A stretch of DNA of 64,000 nucleotides from an uncultured Actinomycetes bacterium (GTDB taxonomy: Bacteria; Actinomycetota; Acidimicrobiia; IMCC26256; DASPTH01), in NCBI GenBank assembly GCA_963809795.1, contig CAWELN010000005.1:23772-87771 (forward strand), read 5' to 3'. A program made the position numbers and the translations under genes. Within the stretch, counting starts at the first letter, position 1; each line of letters starts with the position of its first letter. A model generated the notes under the pieces. That model was not told the origin of the DNA. It was given only the letters and a program-made list of their open reading frames with translations, and did not search any database. Below, piece by piece: positions 859 to 17,384 of this stretch.

Positions 859-1869
859 TCATGTCAGCGCGGGTTCGAGGTAGCCGCCGTCGGTCTCGAG
901 CAAGCCGGTGAGCAGCCGGTCCGGGCGCCAATCTTCGAACCGGTCCTCGGTCCGGTCGCGGCCGAGCCAGATCTCGAGATCGCGGAGCTGGTCGAGCACC
1001 GCGGCGCCCAGGAGCAGCGCGCGACCGTGGACTGGATCCCGTTCACGAGCTGCGATGGCGAACGCGGCCGCGCCGGCGTCGTTGTCGGACCGCTGCCCAT
1101 CCTCGGATACGAGGGCCTCGCACACCAACCGGCACAGGTCGATCTCCACCGGGCCCAGCACGGCGAACTCGAAGTCGAGGAGGGCGACCACCTCGCCGTC
1201 CCACAGCGCGTTCATCAGCGCGAGGTCGCCGTGGTTGACGACCTGCTCGACGACGGGCGCGGCTCGGTAGTAGTCGCCGATGATCTCGTGGAACCGCGAC
1301 CGCTGCACATCCGGCAGACCCAACGCAGCACTGACGCGATCGGCTGCGGCCGTCGCGTCGTCAGCTGTTGCCGGTATGAAGCCCGCGTGCGATCCGACGA
1401 GCAGACGGAGCGAGGGCGTGGCGTCGTGCACGAGCCGCACGCGCGCCCACAGCTGGCGGATCGCTCGACGCCGCTCCTCGGGTGTCAGCGTGGGCCACGC
1501 CTCGTGCAGGTTCTGGCCTCGAACCTCCTCGGTCACGATCCAGTCATGACCCTCGATCGTGCCCACCCCGAGGATCTTCGGGTGTCCGACCTCGGGCGGC
1601 AGCGCGCGCACGAGCGCGACCTCGGCGGCCATGCCGTCGACGACCGACGTGTTCGCGATCCGCACGGCGAGGCCACTACCGACCCAGGTCGCGTTCGAGA
1701 TCCCGAGAGCCCGCCGCATCCCGCGGAGATCACCGCCGTGCTGGGCGACGACTTGGGCAGCCAGAGACCGGACGACGGCAGCCTCCGTCGGGTCGCCGTG
1801 CTGGTCGAGCCAGTGCGTATCCGCCTCGGGCTCCTTCATCGCTGGGGCGACCAGTTGTGAATACCCCAA
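859..1869 (-). CDS. Aminoglycoside/choline-kinase-like phosphotransferase (APH family)
   Basis: 336-aa ORF with the Brenner/APH catalytic region VVNHGDLALMNALWDGEVVALLDFEFA. The start could instead be the ATG at 1839. Confidence 0.8.
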   Translation of the reverse strand: MGYSQLVAPAMKEPEADTHWLDQHGDPTEAAVVRSLAAQVVAQHGGDLRGMRRALGISNATWVGSGLAVRIANTSVVDGMAAEVALVRALPPEVGHPKILGVGTIEGHDWIVTEEVRGQNLHEAWPTLTPEERRRAIRQLWARVRLVHDATPSLRLLVGSHAGFIPATADDATAAADRVSAALGLPDVQRSRFHEIIGDYYRAAPVVEQVVNHGDLALMNALWDGEVVALLDFEFAVLGPVEIDLCRLVCEALVSEDGQRSDNDAGAAAFAIAARERDPVHGRALLLGAAVLDQLRDLEIWLGRDRTEDRFEDWRPDRLLTGLLETDGGYLEPALT

Positions 1870-4788: not shown

Positions 4789-5730
4789 TCAACTTGTTGG
4801 TTGAGCCGTCCAGCGCGTGCACGTAATGGTTCCTGCGTCGGCGTCGAGGTCGGCGAGCGCTCCGATCGGGAGCGATACTTGGTCCGGGCTGCCGTCGGGC
4901 AGCTCGATGTCGTGTCCGGCGGGAATCCCCCCGAGGATCGGCACGGCCAGGTTGCCGAGTCGATCTTCGAGGACGTCGATGATCGTCCAGCCGCGGTCCT
5001 CGACGTCGCGGAAGCCCTCGAACGATCCGAGGACGATGCCCGCGATGCCGTCGAGGGACCCGGAGACGATGAGCTGGGTCAGCAGACGATCGACGAACCC
5101 GAGGCCCTTGTGCCGCAGGTCTTCGAAGAACACGATCGCGCCGGCGAGGCTCGGGAGGCGCGTCCCCACGGAGGTCGCCATCGCCGTGAGGTTGCCGCCG
5201 ACGAGTCGGCCCGAAGCGCGCCCCGGAACACTGATCGCAGCGGAGAACGCCGTCTCGTCGCGCTGCACGGTCAGCGGATCCGGGGTCATGAGCAGCTGCT
5301 GGACCGTCGCCGATGCCGTCGGTCCCGCGAGCGCGCCATGGATCGAGCCGAGCCCGCACCCCTGCCACAAGGCGAGGTGGATGTGCGTGGTGTCGCTGAA
5401 GCCGACCACCAGCTTCGGATCAGCTCGCACGAGGTCGAAGTCGATGAAGTCGGCGATCCGGTACGCGCCGGCTCCTCCACGGGTGGTGATGATCGCCCGC
5501 ACCTCGGGATCGGCGAAGGCACCGTTGAGGTCGGCAAGTCGGTCCTCGTCACGACCGGCGCAGTAGCCGTGCCGGTCGAGAGCATGTGGCGCCAGGTCGA
5601 CGCGCAGGCCCCAGGTCTCCAAGATGCCGATGGACGTCTGCACCCACTCCTCGCTGGGCCAACTCGCGGGTGAGACGAGGCGCACCAAGTCTCCCGGCTG
5701 CACCAAGCCAGGAACAAGAACGTCAGACAC
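4789..5730 (-). CDS. LD-carboxypeptidase (peptidase S66, MccF/LdcA-like)
   Basis: N-terminal LVSPASW...GYCAGRDEDRLADLNGAFADPEVRAIITTRGGAGAYRI is typical of the S66 family. Confidence 0.85.
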   Translation of the reverse strand: MSDVLVPGLVQPGDLVRLVSPASWPSEEWVQTSIGILETWGLRVDLAPHALDRHGYCAGRDEDRLADLNGAFADPEVRAIITTRGGAGAYRIADFIDFDLVRADPKLVVGFSDTTHIHLALWQGCGLGSIHGALAGPTASATVQQLLMTPDPLTVQRDETAFSAAISVPGRASGRLVGGNLTAMATSVGTRLPSLAGAIVFFEDLRHKGLGFVDRLLTQLIVSGSLDGIAGIVLGSFEGFRDVEDRGWTIIDVLEDRLGNLAVPILGGIPAGHDIELPDGSPDQVSLPIGALADLDADAGTITCTRWTAQPTS

Positions 5731-7628: not shown

Positions 7629-8996
7629 GTGGCAGATCAGCCGGGCGTCGACCTGCCTGACGGGATGGTCGAGTGGATCGCTGAGGTTGGCGTGGGTCGT
7701 GTCACTCGTGTCGAACGTCATATCGCTCGGCGGGAGGCCTGGGTGGTCGATGTCGCACGCGCCGATGGGAGCGTGGGTGAGTATTTCTTGCGGCTCGACC
7801 GTGGATCGGCGCCGGCCGCAAGCCCATGGAGCGTGCACAAGGAGATGCGCGTGGTCGACACGCTCTTTCGCGCCGGGCTGCCGGTGCCTGAGGTACACGG
7901 TTGGAATGGCACGCTGCAGGCCGCGCTGTACGAGCGGGTGCGTGGGCGCGACGACCTCCCGGTCGACACGACTCCGGAGCAACGTCGCGCGGTGTGGGAC
8001 CAGTTCATAGGGTTCGTCGTTGATCTCCACGCGCTCGAGCCGCGCGAGCTGGATCTCGCGGACGTGCTCGCGTGGCCGGAGGACGCGCGGGCAGCTGCGC
8101 TGGACGAGGTCGAGAAGCTCGAGCAGCTGATGAGCGTCGACGTCGTGGAGCCGCTGGTCACGTTCGGGTCGCAGTGGCTCCGCCGGTACGCGCCGACTGA
8201 TTTGGACCGTGTCGTGCTCGTGCAGGGAGACACCGGGCCCGGCAACTTCCTGTTCGAGAATTCGCAGCTCACGGGGGTGATCGACTTCGAGTGGGCACAC
8301 TTCGGTGATCCCATGGAGGACTTCGGGAACATGGCGGTGCGGGAGTTCTTCTACCCGTCCGCCAATCTCGCCGAGGTGTTCCCGCTGTACGAGAAGCTGG
8401 GTGGCGACGCGATCGACTTCGACCGTGTGCGCTACTACCGGGTGCACCAGATGGTGCGTTCGGTGATCGCGCTGGTCCAGATGACCACCCTCAACGATCC
8501 GACGACGACCGTCGCGCTCAATCTCTGTTACCGCGTGATCTGTGACCGCGCGGCGTGTGAGGCGATCGCCGACGCGATGCACGTCGATCTCGAACGGCCG
8601 CCGCCGTTGGGCACGGCGGCGTCCAACGGCGGGTACACCATCGGTGAGGTTGTGCTCGACAACCTTCGGCGCGAGGTCTCCCCGTCGATCGATGACACCT
8701 GGGCGCGCCATCAACTCGAACATTCGGCCCTGCTCGTCGAGTGCATGGACCGCGTCGCCCGACTTGGCGCCACCGTGGACGCGATCGAGGTGGACGAACT
8801 CGCGGTGCTCCTGGGCGAGCGACCCGTGACCGCCGAAGCCGGTCTGGCGAGCCTCGACGCGGCGCTGCGGGAGTCGGACGGAGATCGCGACGACGACGTG
8901 CTGCGGTACCTCGCCCGGCGCGCCTATCGCGCCGAAGACCTCTACGCACCAGTGGTCGCACTCTTTCCTGCCCGTGAGTTCTCGCCCCTCATCTGA
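7629..8996 (+). CDS. Phosphotransferase family protein (APH/acyl-CoA-dehydrogenase-associated kinase type)
   Basis: The GTG start is preceded by GAGGAGG. Catalytic region VLVQGDTGPGNFLFENSQLTGVIDFEWAHFGDPMEDF. Confidence 0.85.
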   Translation: MADQPGVDLPDGMVEWIAEVGVGRVTRVERHIARREAWVVDVARADGSVGEYFLRLDRGSAPAASPWSVHKEMRVVDTLFRAGLPVPEVHGWNGTLQAALYERVRGRDDLPVDTTPEQRRAVWDQFIGFVVDLHALEPRELDLADVLAWPEDARAAALDEVEKLEQLMSVDVVEPLVTFGSQWLRRYAPTDLDRVVLVQGDTGPGNFLFENSQLTGVIDFEWAHFGDPMEDFGNMAVREFFYPSANLAEVFPLYEKLGGDAIDFDRVRYYRVHQMVRSVIALVQMTTLNDPTTTVALNLCYRVICDRAACEAIADAMHVDLERPPPLGTAASNGGYTIGEVVLDNLRREVSPSIDDTWARHQLEHSALLVECMDRVARLGATVDAIEVDELAVLLGERPVTAEAGLASLDAALRESDGDRDDDVLRYLARRAYRAEDLYAPVVALFPAREFSPLI

Positions 8997-9050
8997 CGAG
9001 ATCAGCGCCATCAAAACGACGGATTGTCGGGGGACACCGCGTCGCTCCGC

Positions 9051-9134
9051 GCGCCATATCTCTGCCGCTCCGCACGCGCCGAGACTCCGGCCGAACCCGG
9101 GCCGCGTATCTGCTCCCGAGCGGGCATTCGGTGC
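9051..9134. repeat. Family-3 palindromic element (long-loop copy)
   Basis: GCGCCATATCTCTGCCGCTCCGC ... CGAGCGGGCATTCGGTGC. Lies between the convergent stops at 8996 and 9198. Confidence 0.5.
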
Positions 9135-9197
9135 TACCTGGGCACTGTGCTTGCCGGGCCGCGAGCGTGGGCGTCGGTACTGCCGCGGGCGCGGTCA

Positions 9198-10232
9198 TCA
9201 TCGGCGTCGGTGGGCGCTCCGCGTCGGGCAGATCGCCACCGCGTACGGAACCTTGCCGACGGTGATGGGGGCCGACACCGCACCCGTCGCGGTGGTGATC
9301 ACCGACACTGTGCCGTCCACAGAGTTGGTCACGTAGGCGTGCTTGCCGTCAGGGGTGAACGCCACCGCGTCTGGACCCCCGCCGACGGTGACGGGCGACA
9401 CCGCACCCGTCGCCGTCGTGATCACTGACACCGTGTTACCCGCGCCGTTATTCCCCTCGTTGGTCACGTAGGCGTGCTTGCCGTCAGGGGTGATCGCCAC
9501 CGAGACCGGAAACGCGCCGACGGTGATGGGGGTCGACACCGCGCCCGTCGCCGTCGTGATCACCGACACCGTGCCGTCGCCGCCGTTGATCACGTAGGCG
9601 TGCTTGCCGTCAGGGGTGATCGCCACCCCAACCGGAAACTTGCCGACGGTGATGGGGGTCGACACCGCGCCCGTCGCCGTCGTGATCACCGACACCGTAC
9701 CGTCACGGAAGTTGGGCACGTAGGCGTGCTTGCCGTCAGGGGTGATCGCCACCTGCGGCGGACCCCCGCTGACGGTGATGGGGGCCGACACCGCACCCGT
9801 CGCGGTGGTGATCACCGACACCGTACTGTCGTCACGGTTGATCACGTAGGCGTGCTTGCCGTCAGGGGTGATCGCCACCGTGGTCGGACCCTTGCCGACG
9901 GTGATGGGCGCCGACACCGCACCCGTCGCCGTCGTGATCACCGACACCGTGCCGCCGAAGACGTTGGTCACGTAGGCGTGCTTGCCGTCAGGGGTGATCG
10001 CCACCCCACCCGCACCCGGACCCCCGCCGACGGTGATGGGCGACACGGCACCCGTCGTCGTGGTGATCACCGACACCGTGCCGTCCAGGTAGTTGGTCAC
10101 GTAGGCGGTGCCCGGACACCCTCCGGCCGCAGCCGCAGCGGACGCAGCCGATGTCGCGACCACAATCCCCGCCCCCGACAACGCGACCACGACAACGGCA
10201 ACGAGCTTCCGGCACCCAGCGACGCCGTGCAT
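9198..10232 (-). CDS. Secreted 7-bladed YVTN-family beta-propeller protein (paralog 1)
   Basis: The ATG at 10232 follows GGGAGGG. Signal peptide KLVAVVVVALSGAGIVVATSAASA. Seven repeats of AYVxN....TVSVITTATGAVS.PITVG..P..VAITPDGKH. Confidence 0.9.
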   Translation of the reverse strand: MHGVAGCRKLVAVVVVALSGAGIVVATSAASAAAAAGGCPGTAYVTNYLDGTVSVITTTTGAVSPITVGGGPGAGGVAITPDGKHAYVTNVFGGTVSVITTATGAVSAPITVGKGPTTVAITPDGKHAYVINRDDSTVSVITTATGAVSAPITVSGGPPQVAITPDGKHAYVPNFRDGTVSVITTATGAVSTPITVGKFPVGVAITPDGKHAYVINGGDGTVSVITTATGAVSTPITVGAFPVSVAITPDGKHAYVTNEGNNGAGNTVSVITTATGAVSPVTVGGGPDAVAFTPDGKHAYVTNSVDGTVSVITTATGAVSAPITVGKVPYAVAICPTRSAHRRR

Positions 10233-10450
10233 TGGCCCTCCCGCGTGTTCGAACGGAAGAGGCGGAGGGCTCAAACTCGAGCAGGGTCTAGACCAGGCTC
10301 AAACTCGGCGTCGCTCCCGAAAGGTGAACAAGGTGACCGTACACCCGATGCCCAGCGAAGGAAGGAGTGCCGTCACGTAACGGGCGGCAATGCTCGTGCA
10401 TTCAGTCCCGTCACCCGACGAGCGCATGGTGCCCGTTCTCGTGCGGCGGT

Positions 10451-10545
10451 GCACGCAGATCTGCCGATCGGGCGTGTCGGCGGCGTCGGCGCGACTCACC
10501 GCGTGCTCTAGCGCGCAACTGCACCCGAGCGGGCAATCTGGCGCG
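10451..10545. repeat. Family-3 palindromic element (long-loop copy)
   Basis: GCACGCAGATCTGCCGATCGGG ... CGAGCGGGCAATCTGGCGC. Lies in the 440-nt gap between propeller paralogs 2 and 1. Confidence 0.5.
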
Positions 10546-10671
10546 ACCAGTGGCCAGGCCCTCAAACGCTACGAGCGAACCCGCAACGCCTGCACGAGAT
10601 CCTCTATCAGGCATTGTGCTACCTCAGCGCTTTACGCGCCTTCCGGTGGCTTTCGCGACGGGAGGAGGTCT

Positions 10672-11730
10672 CTACCGGCGATTGTGGGTGCCCCGCGCCG
10701 GGCAGATCGCCATGAAGATCGGACCGTTGCCGACAGTGATCGGGGGCGACACCGCACCCGTCGCGGTCGTGATGACCGACACCGTGCCGGCGCCGTTACT
10801 GACCACGTTGTTGGTGACGAAGTTGGCGACGGAGGAGTTGACCACGTAGACGTGTTTGCCGTCAGGTGTGCTCGCCACCCCATTGGGACGGCTGCCGACG
10901 GTGATGGGGGCTGCCACCGCACCCGTCGCGGTCGTGATCACCGATACCGTGCCATCGGCGTTGTTGGCCACATAGGCGTGCTTGCCGTCAGGAGTGATCG
11001 CCACCCCAATCGGAGCCTTGCCGACGGTGATGGGGGCTGCCACCGCACCCGTCGCGGTCGTGATCACCGACACCGTGCCATCGGCGTTGTTGACCACGTA
11101 GGCGTGCTTGCCGTCAGGGGTGATCGCCACCAGTTCGGGAGCGTTGCCGACGGTGATGGGGGCTGCCACCGCACCCGTCGCGGTCGTGATCACCGACACG
11201 GTGCCATCGGCGTTGTTGGCCACGTAGGCGTGCTTGCCGTCAGGGGTGATCGCTACGCCGCTGGGACCGTTGCCGACGGTGATGGGGGGTGACACCGCAC
11301 CCGTCGCGGTCGTGATCACCGACACCGTGTCAGCGAAGGCGTTGGTCACGTAGGCGTGCTTGCCGTCAGGGGTGATCGTCACCTCGTTGGGACCGTTGCC
11401 GACGGTGATGGGGGGTGACACCGCAGCCGTCGCGGTCGTGATCACCGACACTGTGCCGGCGATGATGTTGGCCACATAGGCGTGCGTGCCGTCAGGAGTG
11501 ATCGCCACTCCGACCGGACGGCTGGGCACGGTGATGGGGGGCGACACCGCACCCGTGGCGGTCGTAATTACCGACACCGTGCCATCGGCGTTGTTGTTCA
11601 CATAGGCCTTTCCTGCGCACCCCTCGACAGCCGCCGCGGGCGCAGCCGACGTTGTGACCAGCACCCCCGACCCCGACAACGCGATGACGATCACGGCTAC
11701 GACCTTCCGGCGCAAACGGACAGCGTTCAC
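10672..11730 (-). CDS. Secreted 7-bladed YVTN-family beta-propeller protein (paralog 2)
   Basis: The GTG at 11730 follows GGAGAGGGA. Signal peptide RRKVVAVIVIALSGSGVLVTTSAAPAAA. Seven YVTN blades; blade 7 carries the insertion SSVANFVTNNVVSNGAG. Confidence 0.9.
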   Translation of the reverse strand: MNAVRLRRKVVAVIVIALSGSGVLVTTSAAPAAAVEGCAGKAYVNNNADGTVSVITTATGAVSPPITVPSRPVGVAITPDGTHAYVANIIAGTVSVITTATAAVSPPITVGNGPNEVTITPDGKHAYVTNAFADTVSVITTATGAVSPPITVGNGPSGVAITPDGKHAYVANNADGTVSVITTATGAVAAPITVGNAPELVAITPDGKHAYVVNNADGTVSVITTATGAVAAPITVGKAPIGVAITPDGKHAYVANNADGTVSVITTATGAVAAPITVGSRPNGVASTPDGKHVYVVNSSVANFVTNNVVSNGAGTVSVITTATGAVSPPITVGNGPIFMAICPARGTHNRR

Positions 11731-11788
11731 AGGTCACTCCCTCTCCAAGTGCCCGCGGGCACGGCAAAATTTCAGCGCTTCGCGAACT

Positions 11789-12982
11789 TCACGCTGGGCA
11801 GATCGCCATGTTGATGGGACCTTTGCCGACAGTGATCGGGGGCGACACCGCACCCGTCGCGGTGGTGATGACCGACACCGTGCCGGCGCCATTGGCGGCG
11901 ACGTCGTTGGTGACGAAGTTGTTGACGGACGAGTTGGTCACGTAGACCTGCTTGCCGTCAGGCGTGATCGCCACGCCGATCGGACGGCTGCCGACGGTGA
12001 TGGGTGGCGACACCGCACCCGTCGCGGTCGTGATCACCGACACCGTGCCATCGGCGTTGTTGGTCACGTAGGCGTGCGTGCCGTCCGGAGTGATCGCCAC
12101 CTGCTCCGGACCGTTGCCGACGGTGACGGGGGCTGACACCGCACCCGTCGCGGTCGTGATCACCGACACCGTGCCGCCACCGTTGTTGGCCACGTAGACG
12201 TGCTTACCGTCCGGAGTGATCGCCACGCCGTGAGGAGCGTTACCGACGGTGATGGGCGCCGAGAGCGCGCCCGTCGCGGTCGTGATGACCGACACCGTGC
12301 TGCCACCATCGTTGGCCACGTAGACGTGCTTGCCGTCGGGAGTGACCGCTATCCCATCCGGACCGTTGCCGACAGTGATGGGGGGCGACACCGCACCTGT
12401 CGCGGTCGTGATCACCGACACCGTGCCATCGGCGTTGTTGGTCACGTAGACGTGCTTACCGTCGGGAGTGATCGCCACCCCGACCGGAGCCTTGCCGACG
12501 GTGATGGGGGCTGACACCACACCCGTCGCGGTCGTGATCACCGACACCGTGCCGTCGATGACGTTGGTCACGTAAGCGTGCGTGCCGTCGGGAGTGATCG
12601 CCACCCCGGTCGGACGGGCGCCGATGGTGATGGGGGCTGACACCGCACCGGTCGCGGTGGTGATCACTGAGACCGTGCCATCGGCGTTGTTGTTCACGTA
12701 CGCCTTTCCCGCGCACCCCCCGACAGCCGCGACCGGCGGGAGCGTGGGCGTCTGCACCGAGGACGGGTGGTTGCCACCGGAGAAGAGGAGTACCCCTCCT
12801 ATGACCAGCGCGACGACGAGACAGGCGGCAATCACGGCAATCACCGGCACACGACGCGCGACCCGCTGCGCCGTGGGCTCGGCTGTCGTCGTCAAGGACG
12901 TCGGCCGGACCTCGATCTGGCCAGCAGCGTCGCGCAGCGCGGTCCGCAACGCGGATTCGATGGATTGGTCCCTGCCGTTCAC
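11789..12982 (-). CDS. Membrane-anchored 7-bladed YVTN beta-propeller, putative anti-sigma/sensor partner of the upstream ECF sigma
   Basis: The GTG start overlaps the sigma stop (GTGA). About 45 cytoplasmic aa (IESALRTALRDAAGQ) precede one TM (VPVIAVIAACLVVALVIGGVLLF) and seven YVTN blades. No HxxxCxxC zinc anti-sigma motif. Confidence 0.85.
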   Translation of the reverse strand: MNGRDQSIESALRTALRDAAGQIEVRPTSLTTTAEPTAQRVARRVPVIAVIAACLVVALVIGGVLLFSGGNHPSSVQTPTLPPVAAVGGCAGKAYVNNNADGTVSVITTATGAVSAPITIGARPTGVAITPDGTHAYVTNVIDGTVSVITTATGVVSAPITVGKAPVGVAITPDGKHVYVTNNADGTVSVITTATGAVSPPITVGNGPDGIAVTPDGKHVYVANDGGSTVSVITTATGALSAPITVGNAPHGVAITPDGKHVYVANNGGGTVSVITTATGAVSAPVTVGNGPEQVAITPDGTHAYVTNNADGTVSVITTATGAVSPPITVGSRPIGVAITPDGKQVYVTNSSVNNFVTNDVAANGAGTVSVITTATGAVSPPITVGKGPINMAICPA

Positions 12983-13425
12983 TGCGGGATCGCCTTTCTC
13001 AGCGTCGCGAGTCCGCGATGCACAAGCGATCGCACCGTCGCGGGCCTACACCCCAGTGCCTGCGCGATCTCGGAGTCTGGGCGGTCCTCGTAGAAGCGCA
13101 AGACGAGCGCGGCCCGTTGGCGATAGGGCAGCTCCGAAAGGGCGTCCAAGACGACCGGCGTCTCTGGCACCACCGTGTCAGTGACCAGCTCGGGAAAATG
13201 CGATCGTTCACGACGGTTCCGCCGATGATGCGCACTGCACCCGTTCACGACCGTGACGCGCAGGTACGCAGATGGCTGCCGGACCCCGTCCCAATGACGA
13301 TGCAAACGAACGAACGCGTCCTGAACGACATCCTCCGCCACCGCACTGCTGCCGGTCAGCAGATAGGCGACGCGCACCAGCCGCTCGTGCTCTCCGGCAA
13401 ACACCGCACCCATCGACCGAGTCAC
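12979..13425 (-). CDS. ECF-type RNA polymerase sigma-70 family factor
   Basis: Region 2: HERLVRVAYLLTGSSAVAEDVVQDAFVRLHRHW. Region 4: LPYRQRAALVLRFYEDRPDSEIAQALGCRPATVRSLVHRGLATLRK. The start is uncertain (GTG 13425, ATG 13413 or GTG 13482); a GGAGGGGGAG run lies at about 13438-13447. Confidence 0.85.
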   Translation of the reverse strand: MTRSMGAVFAGEHERLVRVAYLLTGSSAVAEDVVQDAFVRLHRHWDGVRQPSAYLRVTVVNGCSAHHRRNRRERSHFPELVTDTVVPETPVVLDALSELPYRQRAALVLRFYEDRPDSEIAQALGCRPATVRSLVHRGLATLRKAIPQ

Positions 13426-13534
13426 ATCGTCTGGGATCTCCCCCTCCAATACCAGCCTCTCGCTACCTCGCGACAACCCCACACTGAGTAGATGCCGCAG
13501 ACGCCAACTCTGTTGCGCGTACACCCAAGAAACC

Positions 13535-13567
13535 AAAAAAACCCGGGCGTTCCCACAGGCCGCCCGG
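13535..13567 (-). terminator. Intrinsic terminator between the SARP-cyclase-STAND gene and the sigma operon
   Basis: The minus strand reads CCGGGCG-GCCTGTGGGAA-CGCCCGG-G-TTTTTTT. That is a 7-bp GC stem, an 11-nt loop and a 7-U tract. Confidence 0.65.
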
Positions 13568-13765
13568 ACCCCCGCGTTCTCACACGCCACCTCACCAGCC
13601 TGATCTTGGGCTCGCGACCACCGCGCTGACCCTCCCTGAAATCAGCCTCTCGTAGGCACTTCACACCTCGCCTGGTCCCGGCGCACGCGCTGTATCTGTG
13701 ACCAATGTGTGACCACAGGCGGGTCCAGGCCACGAGAACGACCGAAACGCTTGGTGGCGAAGGCG

Positions 13766-13832
13766 CACACGCATATCTGCCGCTCGGTACTCGCGCAACT
13801 CCAGCTGCGCAGCTGAGCGTTCGGAGCGCGCG
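13766..13832. repeat. Partial family-3 element abutting the stop of the SARP-cyclase-STAND gene
   Basis: CACACGCATATCTGCCGCTCGG core, plus GCGCGCAACT shared with the copy at 10451..10545. The second arm is weak. Confidence 0.35.
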
Positions 13833-16800
13833 TTATGGCGCGCCGAGGGCTCGGCCGGCTTCGGCGCGTAGGTAGGTGACGGCGTCGGCCATGTCGAGGG
13901 CGGCGCCCCGTGCGGCGAGCGTCGCGACCTGTTGTTCGCCGAGGACTTCGAGGAGGGCGACCTCGGTCGCCGCGAGCATTTCGAGGCTCCAATCGAATCC
14001 CCATCGTCCCGCCATCGCGTCGGATTTCCCGAAGAGGACGGCCGCCGGCTCGCAAGACCCGAGCGCGCACAACGCGACACCAGCCGTGTAGAGGGACCTA
14101 CTCGCAACGCCATGGTCACCGAGTTCGAGCGTCTGTTCGGCGGCGTCGACGGCCCCTTGGAGGGCTGTTGGCCAGTCACCATGTCGCATCGCGATCCTCG
14201 CTTTGTAATGGATCGCGTTCGAGACGCCGTTACGGTCACCGATGCGGGTACCGATCTCGATGGCTTCGTCGAGCAGCCCGAGCGCGCGTTCGGACTCCTC
14301 GTACGGGAGCCAAGTCGCGACGATTGTGAGGCCGATCGCGAGCGCCGCGTCGATGCCGGCGGCACGGGCGACGCGCACCGCTTCGTCAACGGCGGCGGTC
14401 GCGGCGTCGAGCGTCGGTTCAGTGATCTGGAGCGCGCCTCCGAGCATGATGAGTGCGTGTGCGAGTTCGCCAGGGTCCCCGGATGCCCGCGCGAGCTCGA
14501 CCCATTCCTCGGCGTGACGTCGTGCCTCCTCGAAGTCAGTGCGATAGAACGCGAGGGTCGCCTGAGCCCGCGCCACGTACCCAAGCCGTATACCGAGCGC
14601 GGCTTGGGCTCGTTCCGCGGCGGCGACGAGGTCTGCGGCCCGCTCGAGATCGCCGCCCATCGTTGCGCCCCACGCGGCCCAGGCGGCGACCACGGGAACG
14701 AGCGGGTGACCGTCGCCGCCGGGGATCGCGATCGCGGTCGTGGCCCAGTCCATCGCGAGTTCGCCGATCCTGCCGTGCACCGCCAGCGGGGCGACGAGGC
14801 GCAGCGCGTGCTCGGGTGAAGGTGTCTCGACTGCCCAATCGAGCGCCGCGCGGAAGTTGTCGATGTCGCGCGCGACGACGTTGGTCCACTCCAGGTGGTC
14901 TCGGCCCCGCAGGTGGAGACCGGCCGCTTCGGCCAGCGCGACGTAGTAGTCGGCGTGGCGACGTCGCACCACCGCCGGATCGCCACTCGCGTCGAGCCGC
15001 TCACGCGCGTACTGGCGGATCGTCTCCAGCAGCCGGTAACGCACCCCGCCGTCTGCGTCGTCGGTGACGACGAGGGACTTGTCCACCAGTTGACCCAACA
15101 CGTCGACCACATCCAGCGCGTCGAGGTCGTCGTCGGGCAGCACCGCTTCCGCGGCCCCAAGATCACAGCCACCCGCGAACACCGACAGGCGGTCGAACGC
15201 ATGACGCTCGGTCGGGGTGAGCAGGTCATAGGACCAGTCGATCGTGCTCCGCAACGTCTGGTGGCGTTCCGGTGCCGCGCGACTGCCGTGCGTGAGGAGC
15301 TTGAACCGTTGATCGAGGCGGGACACGAGATCCTCCGGTGACAACGACCGCACCCGCGCCGCCGCCAGCTCGATCGCGAGCGGGATCCCGTCCAGGCGTC
15401 GACACAACACGCCGACGGCACCGACGTTGCGGTCGGTGAGCGCGAAGTCGCGCTTCGCCGTGCTCGCCCGATCCCAAAACAGACACACCGCCTCCGCCCG
15501 CCTCACCTCGTCCACATCCGCATCACCGGCCGGGACACCCAGCGGCGGCACCGCGACGATCCGCTCGCCCGCCAACCCGAGGCCCTCCCGGCTTGTCGCG
15601 AGCACCGACACGTCTGGGCAACGATGCTCGATGGCATCGACCTGACGCGCGACCGCATCGAGGAGATGCTCGCAGTTGTCGAGCACCAGCAACAACCGCT
15701 TCGCGGCGAGATAGTCGAGTACCGACTCGTCGAGCGCCCGACCCGGCAGCGGCAGCACCCGCAGGCACGCCGCGACGGTCTCCCACACCGCCTCCGGATC
15801 GGTGACCGGCGCGAACTCGCACAACCACGCACCGTCGGGGAACTCGTCGATGATCTCCGCCGCAATCTGGAGTGCGAGACGGGTCTTGCCGACCCCGCCC
15901 ACCCCGGTCAAAGTCACCAGCGACGACCGACAGACCAGCTCCGACAGTGACGCGATCTCGGCCTCGCGTCCGACGAACGTCGTCGCCTGACGCGGCAGGT
16001 TGTTGCGTGCGAAGGCGTCCAAAGTGCGGAGCGGCGCGAACTCCCGCTCCAGATCGGGATGGGCTACTTGAAACAAGCGCTCCGTCCGCCCGAGATCACG
16101 CAGCCGGTGCTCTCCCAGGTCGATGAACCCGTACTTCTCGGGGAGGGCGTCGTGCAGCACCTCTTCCGTCGCGGCTGACACGACGATCTGGCCGCCGTGC
16201 GCCACCGACATCAGCCGCTCGGCGCGATTCACCGCGCCGCCGCTGTAGTCGCCGTCGCGGACCTCCGCCTCGCCGGTATGGATCCCCATCCGGACGCGCA
16301 CGGTCTGCGCGATGTTCCAGTCGTCCGCGAGCAGCGACCTTTGGGCGGCAACCGCAGCCGTGACCGCATCGTGGGCGGTCGCGAACACAGCGTGGAACCC
16401 ATCGCCCGCGTTCTTGACGATGAAGCCACCCTGTGACTTGACCGCATCGCGCAGCAGCTCGTCGTGACGCGGCATCGCATAGGTCATCACGTCGGGACTC
16501 TCGTCCCACAGGCGCGTCGAACCCTCCACCTCGGTGAAGAGGAACGACACGGTCCCCGACGGCAGATGTGCTGAGTCTGGGTCCTTCGTCGGCGATCCCG
16601 CCCACCCGACGTCGGGGTCCTGCCGCACGATGTCGTCGTTGAGCGCCTGCAGTCCGGGCGACGGGACCACACCGACCTCGTCGGTCAGGCGCCGACGAAA
16701 CTCGTCGTACGCGCGCAGTGACTCGACCGGCCTACCGGCGCGGGCGAGCGCGAGCATCAGCAGCGCTCGCAGTCGCTCGCGAAACGGCTCAACCGCGATC

Positions 16801-17384
16801 TGGGCCTCGAGTTCGCCGACGACGTCCTCGGGGCGGCCCAACTCCAAGAGCGCGGCGGACCGTTCCTCGATCGCCCGGGCGCGCAGCTCAACCAGTCGAG
16901 CAACCTCCGCGGTGGCGAACTCCTCACTCGCGAACTCCGCGTAGGGGGACCCTCGCCACAGCCCGAGCGCCTCGTCGAACGCGCCGAGCGCTACCTCCGG
17001 GCGTTCAGACGCCCCGAGCCCGACCCGCACCAGCTCCTCGAAACGCAACGCGTCGACCTCGCCGCTCGCCACCCGCAGCCGATACCCCGGTGGGCGTGTC
17101 TCCAGGCGGTCGTCACCAAGCGTCTGGCGCAGCCGCGACACCAATCCCTGGAGCGTCTGCGTCGCACTCGGCGGCGGCCCGTCACCCCACAGAACGTCGA
17201 CGAGACGATCCCTCGAGACCACCTCGTTGGCGTGGACCACCAACGCCGCGAGCAAGCGGCGCTGCTGCCCGCTTCCCAGCCGAACCCGCTCGCCGTCGCG
17301 CACGACCTCCAACGGGCCCAGCACACACAGCGCCGTCGCCACCCGGTCCTCCACCGGCCCTCCAACCCCACCCACACTCAACAT
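13833..17384 (-). CDS. Multidomain regulator: SARP winged-helix + BTAD, class III adenylate/guanylate cyclase, NB-ARC/STAND P-loop ATPase, TPR-like C-terminus (1183 aa)
   Basis: wHTH/BTAD: VLGPLEVVRDG...LLAALVV...LVDVLWGD...PGYRL, EALGLWRGSPY. Cyclase: VSFLFTEVEGSTRLW, KNAGDGFHAVF, MGIHTGEAE, GGAVNRAERL. P-loop: LTGVGGVGKTRLAL, LLLVLDNCEH, GIPLAIELAA. Helical repeats run to the stop. Confidence 0.92.
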   Translation of the reverse strand: MLSVGGVGGPVEDRVATALCVLGPLEVVRDGERVRLGSGQQRRLLAALVVHANEVVSRDRLVDVLWGDGPPPSATQTLQGLVSRLRQTLGDDRLETRPPGYRLRVASGEVDALRFEELVRVGLGASERPEVALGAFDEALGLWRGSPYAEFASEEFATAEVARLVELRARAIEERSAALLELGRPEDVVGELEAQIAVEPFRERLRALLMLALARAGRPVESLRAYDEFRRRLTDEVGVVPSPGLQALNDDIVRQDPDVGWAGSPTKDPDSAHLPSGTVSFLFTEVEGSTRLWDESPDVMTYAMPRHDELLRDAVKSQGGFIVKNAGDGFHAVFATAHDAVTAAVAAQRSLLADDWNIAQTVRVRMGIHTGEAEVRDGDYSGGAVNRAERLMSVAHGGQIVVSAATEEVLHDALPEKYGFIDLGEHRLRDLGRTERLFQVAHPDLEREFAPLRTLDAFARNNLPRQATTFVGREAEIASLSELVCRSSLVTLTGVGGVGKTRLALQIAAEIIDEFPDGAWLCEFAPVTDPEAVWETVAACLRVLPLPGRALDESVLDYLAAKRLLLVLDNCEHLLDAVARQVDAIEHRCPDVSVLATSREGLGLAGERIVAVPPLGVPAGDADVDEVRRAEAVCLFWDRASTAKRDFALTDRNVGAVGVLCRRLDGIPLAIELAAARVRSLSPEDLVSRLDQRFKLLTHGSRAAPERHQTLRSTIDWSYDLLTPTERHAFDRLSVFAGGCDLGAAEAVLPDDDLDALDVVDVLGQLVDKSLVVTDDADGGVRYRLLETIRQYARERLDASGDPAVVRRRHADYYVALAEAAGLHLRGRDHLEWTNVVARDIDNFRAALDWAVETPSPEHALRLVAPLAVHGRIGELAMDWATTAIAIPGGDGHPLVPVVAAWAAWGATMGGDLERAADLVAAAERAQAALGIRLGYVARAQATLAFYRTDFEEARRHAEEWVELARASGDPGELAHALIMLGGALQITEPTLDAATAAVDEAVRVARAAGIDAALAIGLTIVATWLPYEESERALGLLDEAIEIGTRIGDRNGVSNAIHYKARIAMRHGDWPTALQGAVDAAEQTLELGDHGVASRSLYTAGVALCALGSCEPAAVLFGKSDAMAGRWGFDWSLEMLAATEVALLEVLGEQQVATLAARGAALDMADAVTYLRAEAGRALGAP

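Follow-up and report, generated by a model that had tools for sequence, protein, structure and literature searches.

Concerted scaffold evolution and blade-specific loops in three highly repetitive YVTN beta-propellers of an uncultured actinomycete, one of them a putative sigma factor partner

Three neighbouring genes in the DNA of an uncultured Actinomycetes bacterium, named here P1, P2 and P3, each encode a beta-propeller built from seven YVTN repeats of 42 residues, and the 21 resulting blades are strongly alike except in two loops. The genes lie on the minus strand of a stretch of 64,000 nucleotides (GTDB lineage Bacteria; Actinomycetota; Acidimicrobiia; IMCC26256; DASPTH01; assembly GCA_963809795.1, contig CAWELN010000005.1, positions 23,772-87,771 of the forward strand). 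The whole stretch is called the window in this text, and all coordinates refer to it unless a related locus is named. The question raised by this locus is which process keeps the blades of three separate genes so uniform and leaves each blade with loops of its own, and what function such proteins could serve. An earlier note on the same DNA had proposed concerted evolution of the scaffold combined with diversification of a ligand-binding face.

The answer favoured here, to which a probability of about 0.6 was assigned as a whole, is that gene conversion would keep the scaffold uniform, that blade-specific loops would form a binding face, and that the membrane-anchored P3 would be the partner of a sigma factor encoded next to it, with P2 and P1 as secreted paralogues.

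The propellers and the position of their variable columns

The longest open reading frame (ORF) of P1 covers 9198-10274 (358 amino acids; blades at 9222-10106) and encodes an exported seven-bladed propeller; translation probably begins at the ATG at 10232, with the sequence GGGAGGG just before it. The N-terminus consists of a signal peptide followed by Cys-x-G-x-AYV, and the C-terminal sequence is AICPTRSAHRRR. P2 (10672-11730, 352 amino acids, blades at 10696-11607) is likewise a propeller exported by a signal peptide. A distance of 58 nt separates its start from P3, which lies upstream and with which it is probably co-transcribed. P3 (11789-12982, 397 amino acids, blades at 11792-12703) is a single-pass membrane protein in which a cytoplasmic N-terminus of about 45 residues is followed by a transmembrane (TM) helix, VPVIAVIAACLVVALVIGGVLLF, the seven-bladed propeller and the end AICPA. 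Both signal-peptide-like starts and the TM segment were read directly from the sequence. The three propellers are paralogous and, by these features, extracytoplasmic.

The repeat structure was recovered by several methods. A TVSVITT anchor was present seven times in each gene, with a spacing of 42 residues except where insertions intervene, and a hidden Markov model (HMM) built from the anchored blades, which also set the blade limits given above, gave exactly 21 matches when the whole window was searched in six-frame translation, all of them in these three genes. Tandem Repeats Finder, run on each gene, returned a period of 126 nt with 6.1-6.9 copies and 82-87% matches. A 36-mer quoted in the earlier note had six exact occurrences, and 13 when three or fewer mismatches were allowed, compared with zero expected. 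In the alignment of the 21 blades, 15 of the 42 columns were invariant by per-column entropy, and high values (1.3-3.25 bits, with the maximum of 3.25 at column 32) were found at columns 4, 6, 7, 8, 29, 30, 32 and 33; columns 9 and 23 showed moderate variability. The number of blades, their 126-nt periodicity and the restriction of the variability to two loops, all proposed in the earlier note, were thereby confirmed, and every loop string listed there was present in the alignment. The description of the blades as near-identical has to be qualified: the mean pairwise amino acid identity was 0.78 in P1, 0.76 in P2 and 0.74 in P3, and the DNA identity between blades ranged from 72 to 94%. Similarly, loop 1 did differ from blade to blade, and the combination of loops was unique to every blade, but this loop was not hypervariable throughout: NNADG was common to seven blades of P2 and P3, with the same DNA (AAC GCC GAT GGC).

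The insertion shared by blade 7 of P2 and P3 also proved to be real. By the blade alignment, loop 1 of this blade is extended by 13 residues in P2 (10786-10836, minus strand, SSVANFVTNNVVSNGAG), and the extension in P3 (11882-11932, minus strand, SSVNNFVTNDVAANGAG) is homologous to it; the two blades were 94% identical in DNA. Part of the YVxN strand appears to be duplicated in the insertion (NFVTN), which formed a short extra hairpin of lower confidence in the AlphaFold2 (AF2) model of P2 (predicted local distance difference test score, pLDDT, 75-84). P1 has a shorter insertion containing NGAG, located in blade 6.

All three proteins were assigned to the YVTN family by TIGR02276, with 207, 206 and 214 bits for P1, P2 and P3 (cut-off 27.85; E-values 1.4e-62, 3.5e-62 and 1.2e-64; 7, 6 and 6 matching stretches, respectively), and all of them scored above the cut-offs of the Pfam models YNCE (PF21783) and Lactonase (PF10282). 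More than 6000 family members were found at E < 1e-10, named at their source as "YVTN family beta-propeller protein" or "YncE family protein". The closest solved structure was 1L0Q (phmmer, 5e-69). The AF2 model of P2 was confident (pLDDT 90.5, predicted template modelling score 0.86), with a regular four-strand pattern in each repeat, and Foldseek placed 1L0Q at the top of its matches (E 9.6e-26, TMq 0.79, 41% identity).

According to DSSP, the four strands of each repeat in this model comprise columns 42-5, 10-15, 20-26 (with a bulge at 22-24) and 31-36. Consecutive loops of a beta-meander alternate between the two faces of the propeller; thus, columns 6-9, columns 27-30 and the strand-initial columns 32-33 should lie on one face, and the invariant turns TATG (16-19) and TPDGK (37-41) on the opposite one. 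With its small residues, the strand GVAIT resembles an innermost strand A, and the bulged strand resembles an outermost strand D. With this assignment, the variable loops would be the B-C loop (columns 6-9) and the D-A loop (columns 27-33, including the start of the inner strand), which by propeller convention would place them on the "top" face, round the mouth of the central channel. The proposal that variation is limited to two loops on one face was therefore supported by the strand and loop topology of the model.

Furthermore, each of the three proteins has a Cys three residues before the first AYV (C-x-G-x-AYV) and another in the last strand (AICP), which in P2 are Cys38 (about 11617-11619) and Cys343 (about 10702-10704). 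The location of this pair at the ring junction coincides with the gap left by the absent A-B loop (TPDGKH). Among the 120 best homologues, a list skewed toward consensus-like sequences, the pair co-occurred in five, all of them TM-anchored and P3-like. The two residues may form a ring-closing disulfide, a covalent bond that would take the place of the A-B loop.

Uniform scaffold, positional loops and the explanations weighed

The evolution of scaffold and loops was followed with the aid of related loci. The most informative one, L003, belongs to a metagenome-assembled genome (MAG) of an uncultured actinomycete of a different species (MFD04944.bin.1.334), in which the sigma gene, P3 and P2 are all present, with 90% nucleotide identity. 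Its P2 (9250-10314 of that locus) and P3 are intact, with seven blades each, and both retain the blade-7 insertion. The block common to L003 and the window extends over 10512-13651, and P2 is syntenic in L003. A second locus, L002, is a 96% identical contig with frameshifts, and a third, L001, holds an orthologue of P1 (91% nucleotide identity). The tests on loops and scaffold rest on one intact orthologous pair per gene, all from metagenome assemblies.

The scaffold proved more uniform than amino acid conservation and codon bias would account for. When blades with the same amino acid were compared, their scaffold codons mismatched at a rate of 0.20, compared with 0.46 expected from the codon usage of the window. 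The rare codons GGT, CCT and GAT were common to many blades; GGT (frequency 0.15) was used in 17 of the 20 blades of its column and CCT (0.03) in 13 of 21. The Nei-Gojobori analysis of all 210 blade pairs gave a scaffold synonymous distance (dS) of 0.29 and a ratio of nonsynonymous to synonymous change (dN/dS, or omega) of 0.21; within P1 the scaffold dS was 0.13. Additionally, synonymous states specific to each lineage were observed. At column 19 of P2, GGT was found in five of blades 1-6 (blade 2 has GCT, Ala) versus GGC in all six of L003, at column 17 of P3 the window has GCG seven times versus GCC five times in L003, and similar states were seen at columns 22-23 of P2 and column 38 of P3. 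Parallel independent mutation at these sites is implausible at a dS of about 0.15-0.3. The scaffold DNA of positional orthologues was 0.918 identical, compared with 0.875 for other blades, and the orthologue was strictly the best match for only 4 of 14 blades; the scaffold of several blades was nearer to a paralogous blade than to the positional orthologue.

The concerted evolution of the scaffold postulated in the earlier note was supported by these three observations, namely the excess of codon identity, the common rare codons and the lineage-specific synonymous states. The excess itself was observed; from these patterns we infer as its mechanism repeated short-tract gene conversion between blades, within genes and between paralogues, which would homogenise the scaffold, with strong purifying selection (omega 0.03-0.25) acting alongside. 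The identical DNA of NNADG in P2 and P3 suggests that conversion would have taken place between these two genes as well.

The loops behaved differently from the scaffold. Their DNA (24 nt) was 0.81 identical between positional orthologues versus 0.62 between non-orthologous blades, and the positional orthologue was the best or tied-best match for 10 of 14 blades. The triplets PTG, PVG, PDG, PHG, PEQ, PIG and PIN at columns 31-33 of P3 were identical in the window and L003. Since loops are kept in position between species, gene conversion fits better than a fresh re-amplification of the blades.

Such re-amplification is nevertheless the explanation that survives best among the alternatives. It holds that each propeller was amplified recently and independently from a single blade, the loops being merely the least constrained part, so that no conversion is needed. 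Propellers with more than 60% internal identity occur widely, lactonase-like families (PF10282) among them, with a high prevalence in Actinobacteria (PMC9218822), and differences in all blades between close homologues of the WRAP type were read by Pereira and Lupas, at the nucleotide level, as independent re-amplification (PMC9218822), in a text that mentions neither gene conversion nor recombination. High internal identity is also common among the 120 homologues (median 0.63, maximum 0.81), blades 4-6 of P2 are 90-92% identical, and a loop omega of about 1 is what unconstrained loops would show. However, the blade-specific loops hold their position both between the two species and between P2 and P3, and would have been lost had the blades been re-amplified once the species had separated. 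Moreover, synonymous states common to five or six blades differ between the same two species, and columns 32-33 of P3 are significantly conserved rather than free (see below). Independent amplification was consequently considered rather unlikely.

Selection on the loops was then evaluated with column classes that had been set from the within-genome entropy and were tested on the independent orthologue comparisons. The scaffold and loop omega values were 0.07 and 0.70 in P3, 0.25 and 1.02 in P2, and 0.03 and 0.92 in P1 (in-frame blades 2-6). The pooled nonsynonymous and synonymous differences amounted to 72/28 in the loops versus 27/81 in the scaffold (Fisher p = 1e-11), and an equal distribution of the two kinds of change, which would have spoken against the idea of the earlier note, was thus rejected. 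In P3, the tip of loop 2 (columns 32-33) had zero nonsynonymous changes, compared with 6.9 expected under neutrality (P = 0.001), and loop 1 together with the base of loop 2 changed at the neutral expectation. In P2, the tip of loop 2 showed eight nonsynonymous changes versus 5.0 expected, which is not significant, and column 23 showed six versus 2.1 (P = 0.02). By these comparisons the secreted P2 appears freer than P3. The loop omega was never clearly above 1, with too few sequences for site models; the loops seem to change at about the neutral rate, and neither positive selection nor rapid adaptive diversification was demonstrated.

The tips of loop 2 in P3, as far as these two lineages tell, are thus different between blades yet conserved through time, a combination that fits an asymmetric, specific binding surface and not a rapidly diversifying one. 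The "diversification" of the ligand-binding face claimed in the earlier note was not sustained, given the orthologue loop omega of 0.70-1.02, the conservation of columns 32-33 in P3 and a constant number of blades (seven for P2 and P3, in the window and L003 alike, two genomes being compared). In the proposed mechanism, the blade-specific residues of loop 2 would escape homogenisation, hold their blade position across species and define an asymmetric binding surface, and the remaining loop positions would drift at a roughly neutral rate.

The same results bear on a second alternative, in which the propellers are immune-like hypervariable receptors, comparable to the fungal or bacterial NLRs whose WD40, TPR or ANK repeats are highly conserved internally, with diversifying selection and repeat shuffling that track changing non-self ligands. 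The formal pattern agrees, in that the scaffold is conserved and a putative binding face bears the variable positions (PMC4986451, PMC5587647), and both the tip of loop 2 and column 23 of P2 were slightly faster than neutral, with the significance stated above. Comparisons between blades within the genome gave a loop dN/dS of 1.3-2.4, for columns picked for their variability after the data had been seen; this value was rejected as a sign of positive selection, the columns being pre-chosen and the comparisons saturated and affected by conversion. Against this alternative stand the orthologue omega values, the conserved tips of P3 and the seven constant blades in both species, together with the export of the proteins, the lack of a NOD or STAND domain in them and the absence of any defence-family match among the surveyed neighbours. 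A target of a diversity-generating retroelement was also discarded: substitutions from the consensus were similar at A, C and G (2.9, 2.3 and 2.9 per site), with no adenine-specific mutation bias. An immune-like role was accordingly regarded as improbable.

An enzyme or a cofactor-associated propeller, lactonase-like or associated with the catabolism of pyrroloquinoline quinone (PQQ), with the loops as its active site, was held to be less probable still. It would agree with the Lactonase match in Pfam and with the score of P2 on TIGR03866, the PQQ-associated propeller model, where the three proteins reached 147-253 bits, P2 having the 253, near the cut-off of 287. But all the equivalog and subfamily models stayed below their cut-offs, including YncE (NF052280, 66-82 bits versus 400), 6-phosphogluconolactonase, the hydrazine synthase beta subunit and the MmpL3/TtfA stabiliser (NF048007, 65-89 bits versus 600), as well as TIGR03866 itself. 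No PQQ dehydrogenase or ABC transporter was present among the surveyed neighbouring genes, an active site needs conserved residues and not blade-variable ones, and the best match in structure and sequence is a non-enzymatic propeller of a surface layer (S-layer).

Finally, an assembly artefact, by which the uniformity or the count of 21 blades would come from collapsed or mis-joined reads, can be dismissed as very improbable: the long-read metagenome assemblies of the closest relatives do contain frameshifts (L001, L002) and short-read contigs over the arrays are fragmented, with chimeric joints inside the repeats, but the three ORFs are intact, each blade has its own combination of loops, seven blades close into a confident AF2 propeller, the MAG of a second species, obtained independently, likewise has 7+7 blades whose positional loops match, and independent soil runs contain pieces 99-100% identical to unique parts of the arrays, for instance with zero differences over 10677-10928 and 10018-10168 (each public run holding at most 24% of the 31-mers of the region, and short-read contigs showing presence, not copy number).

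P3, the adjacent sigma factor and the neighbouring genes

A sigma-70 family factor of the extracytoplasmic function (ECF), SigE-like type is encoded directly upstream of P3 (12979-13590, minus strand, start codon uncertain). It matched Pfam Sigma70_r2 and r4_2 and scored above the cut-off of TIGR02937, and below that of TIGR02983 (132.9 bits versus 141.55). The GTG start of P3 overlaps the stop of the sigma gene by 4 nt, an arrangement from which the two genes are taken to be translationally coupled. The sigma gene was also found immediately upstream of P3 in L003 and L002, and immediately upstream of a TM-anchored relative, with 8-nt overlaps, in L017/L018 and in L019; in two further proteins, P0004 and P0008, the sigma factor was fused into the same gene call as the propeller. 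The linkage was thus seen in five relatives, counting the two known solely from fused gene calls. The relatives of P3 share its TM-anchored architecture and a homologous TM segment, RRAPV..AIAACL.VALVIGG.

Both the gene arrangement and the topology point to P3 as a putative anti-sigma or sensor partner of the sigma factor. In the proposed mechanism, the short cytoplasmic N-terminus of P3 would hold the sigma factor, and the binding of a ligand or a perturbation of the envelope at the propeller would release it. P2, as a co-transcribed gene, and P1 would supply secreted paralogues binding related envelope or extracellular ligands.

Several points weigh against this joint picture. The scaffold segments are short (69-72 nt), which makes blade-by-blade orthology tests noisy, and the orthologues are few and all derived from metagenomes, with the frameshifts of L001 and L002 being possibly sequencing errors. 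The assignment of the variable columns to one face follows from the topology of the model and was not measured on coordinates. No Pfam anti-sigma family was detected in the 89 N-terminal residues of P3 or in three relatives, at E-values up to 5, so that the pairing with the sigma factor derives from gene order. P1 lies beyond the edge (10512) of the block shared with L003 and is not syntenic with the sigma module there, which leaves its membership of the same regulon unproven. Lastly, we know of no ligand for any close relative.

The orthologue of P1 in L001 (7999-9201 and 9683-11161 of that locus) carries two frameshifts and adjoins a transposase of the IS110 family, with more transposases nearby; it is either a decaying gene or the product of long-read assembly errors. 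A separate observation was made in two distant relatives, beside the sigma/TM-YVTN pair, where a secretory-lipase gene (LIP, PF03583) was located (L017, 3209-4444; L019, 6274-7578). It stands upstream of the pair in one relative and downstream in the other, none was seen among the surveyed genes of the window, and it may be a regulon partner.

Regulatory signals were searched as well. A scan of 9000-14000 for sigma-70 promoters gave no sites, the three terminator-like matches in the same interval all lay on the other strand, two of them within the repeats, and a global alignment of the sequences upstream of the sigma gene and P1 revealed no common ECF-type promoter. A 15-nt motif, CGGCAGAT[C/A]TGCGTG, with the palindrome GCAGATCTGC, was noticed at 10452-10466 and 13768-13782, both on the minus strand, the one ahead of P1 and the other ahead of the sigma gene, in each case just beyond the block shared with L003. 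It occurs twice in the window compared with 0.03 expected, a post hoc estimate for a motif spotted by eye. The motif may be an operator or a recombination scar; as evidence of a regulon it was rejected, being absent from all the related loci that were fetched.

Directly upstream of the sigma gene lies a separate gene for a STAND-type regulator of 1183 amino acids (13833-17384, minus strand), which combines an OmpR-type winged helix and BTAD (SARP/AfsR-like), an adenylate/guanylate cyclase, NB-ARC and TPR domains. The likeness to WD40/TPR arrays attached to STAND NTPases drawn in the earlier note holds as an analogy only: Pfam and NCBIfam scans detected no NTPase domain in P1, P2 or P3, none of which is fused to a STAND NTPase, the three proteins are predicted to be extracytoplasmic, and the STAND-type regulator is outside the block shared with L003.

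The remaining neighbours surveyed were mostly metabolic or unannotated, with no defence family match and no functional theme. Ten further ORFs compared with Pfam included an APH kinase, an LD-carboxypeptidase, a tautomerase, a zinc alcohol dehydrogenase, an MTHFR-like protein and a UDP-glucose dehydrogenase, and four had no match. Two genes for APH-family phosphotransferases no more than 9 kb apart (859-1869, minus strand; 7629-8996, plus strand) and the LD-carboxypeptidase gene (4789-5730) have no obvious tie to the propeller genes.

Comparison with known systems

The repeat arrays belong to a recognised class. Highly repetitive propellers have been defined by an internal identity above 60% (Pereira and Lupas 2022) or of at least 70% (Hu et al. 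2017), and P1, P2 and P3 exceed both values. They share with these propellers the actinomycete host, the lactonase-like family and a small number of variable hotspot positions, such as were reported in the otherwise uniform repeats of highly repetitive WD40 proteins (PMC5587647). The locus studied here differs from the highly repetitive WRAP homologues in that positional loops occur together with lineage-specific scaffold markers, which would indicate conversion and not re-amplification. The combination of both features in two species provides a means of separating conversion from the published re-amplification model, and if the reading proposed here is true, nucleotide differences in all blades of repetitive propellers can come from conversion instead.

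The protein of the closest structure, 1L0Q, a surface-layer protein of Methanosarcina mazei, is alike in its 42-residue YVTN repeat, its seven blades and its extracellular location. It is unlike the present propellers in being a component of an archaeal S-layer, fused to PKD domains, with more diverged blades. The propellers of the window stand alone behind a signal peptide or TM anchor and possess the Cys pair, and one copy is sigma-coupled. The same superfamily includes other exported seven-bladed propellers, namely YncE of E. coli, the PQQ-associated periplasmic propeller and the mycobacterial MmpL3/TtfA stabiliser; P1-P3 are not orthologues of YncE or of the MmpL3/TtfA stabiliser, whose models score far below cut-off.

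Highly internally conserved repeats of the fungal HNWD family were reportedly described by Paoletti in 2007 and by Chevanne in 2010. The WD40, ANK and TPR repeats of the fungal NOD-like receptors (NLRs) to which HNWD belongs show variable hotspot positions in otherwise uniform repeats, and they resemble the blades described here in the concerted evolution of the scaffold within and between paralogues and in the variable positions on a binding face (PMC4986451). The fungal arrays differ, however, in being cytoplasmic, in their fusion to NACHT or NB-ARC domains, in the polymorphism of their repeat number and in positive selection at the codon level, in contrast to the propellers of the window, which have no NTPase, a constant number of seven blades, a loop omega of at most about 1 and conserved P3 tips. 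The comparison with NLRs is thus best understood as an analogy of evolutionary mode, not as membership. A wider view, which must be considered tentative and on balance doubtful, is that an ECF-sigma-coupled, membrane-anchored family of YVTN sensors exists in soil actinomycetes, in which conversion would reset the scaffold, selection would protect the contacts at the channel mouth, and P2 and P1 would explore new loop combinations. If true, this sensor family would be a bacterial, extracytoplasmic counterpart of the receptor arrays with concerted evolution.

The arrangement of P3 with its sigma factor resembles the class of ECF sigma factors with single-pass membrane anti-sigma partners in the 4-nt gene overlap, the short cytoplasmic N-terminus, the single TM segment and the large external domain, and in an adjacent arrangement of the co-transcription type that is conserved in several relatives. 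It departs from this class in that P3 has no known anti-sigma domain such as zf-HC2. In the literature searched, no description of a YVTN-propeller or propeller-type anti-sigma partner was found; an apparently undescribed class of ECF sigma partners, made of a TM anchor and a YVTN propeller and maybe closed by a disulfide, would be represented by P3, and the ligand of such a sensor class would show what soil actinomycetes monitor at their envelope. Taken against the known systems, the repeat pattern itself is familiar and gives no evidence of an immune-like hypervariable system; less expected are the signature of conversion with protected loops, the sigma-coupled TM-YVTN subfamily and its conserved Cys pair.

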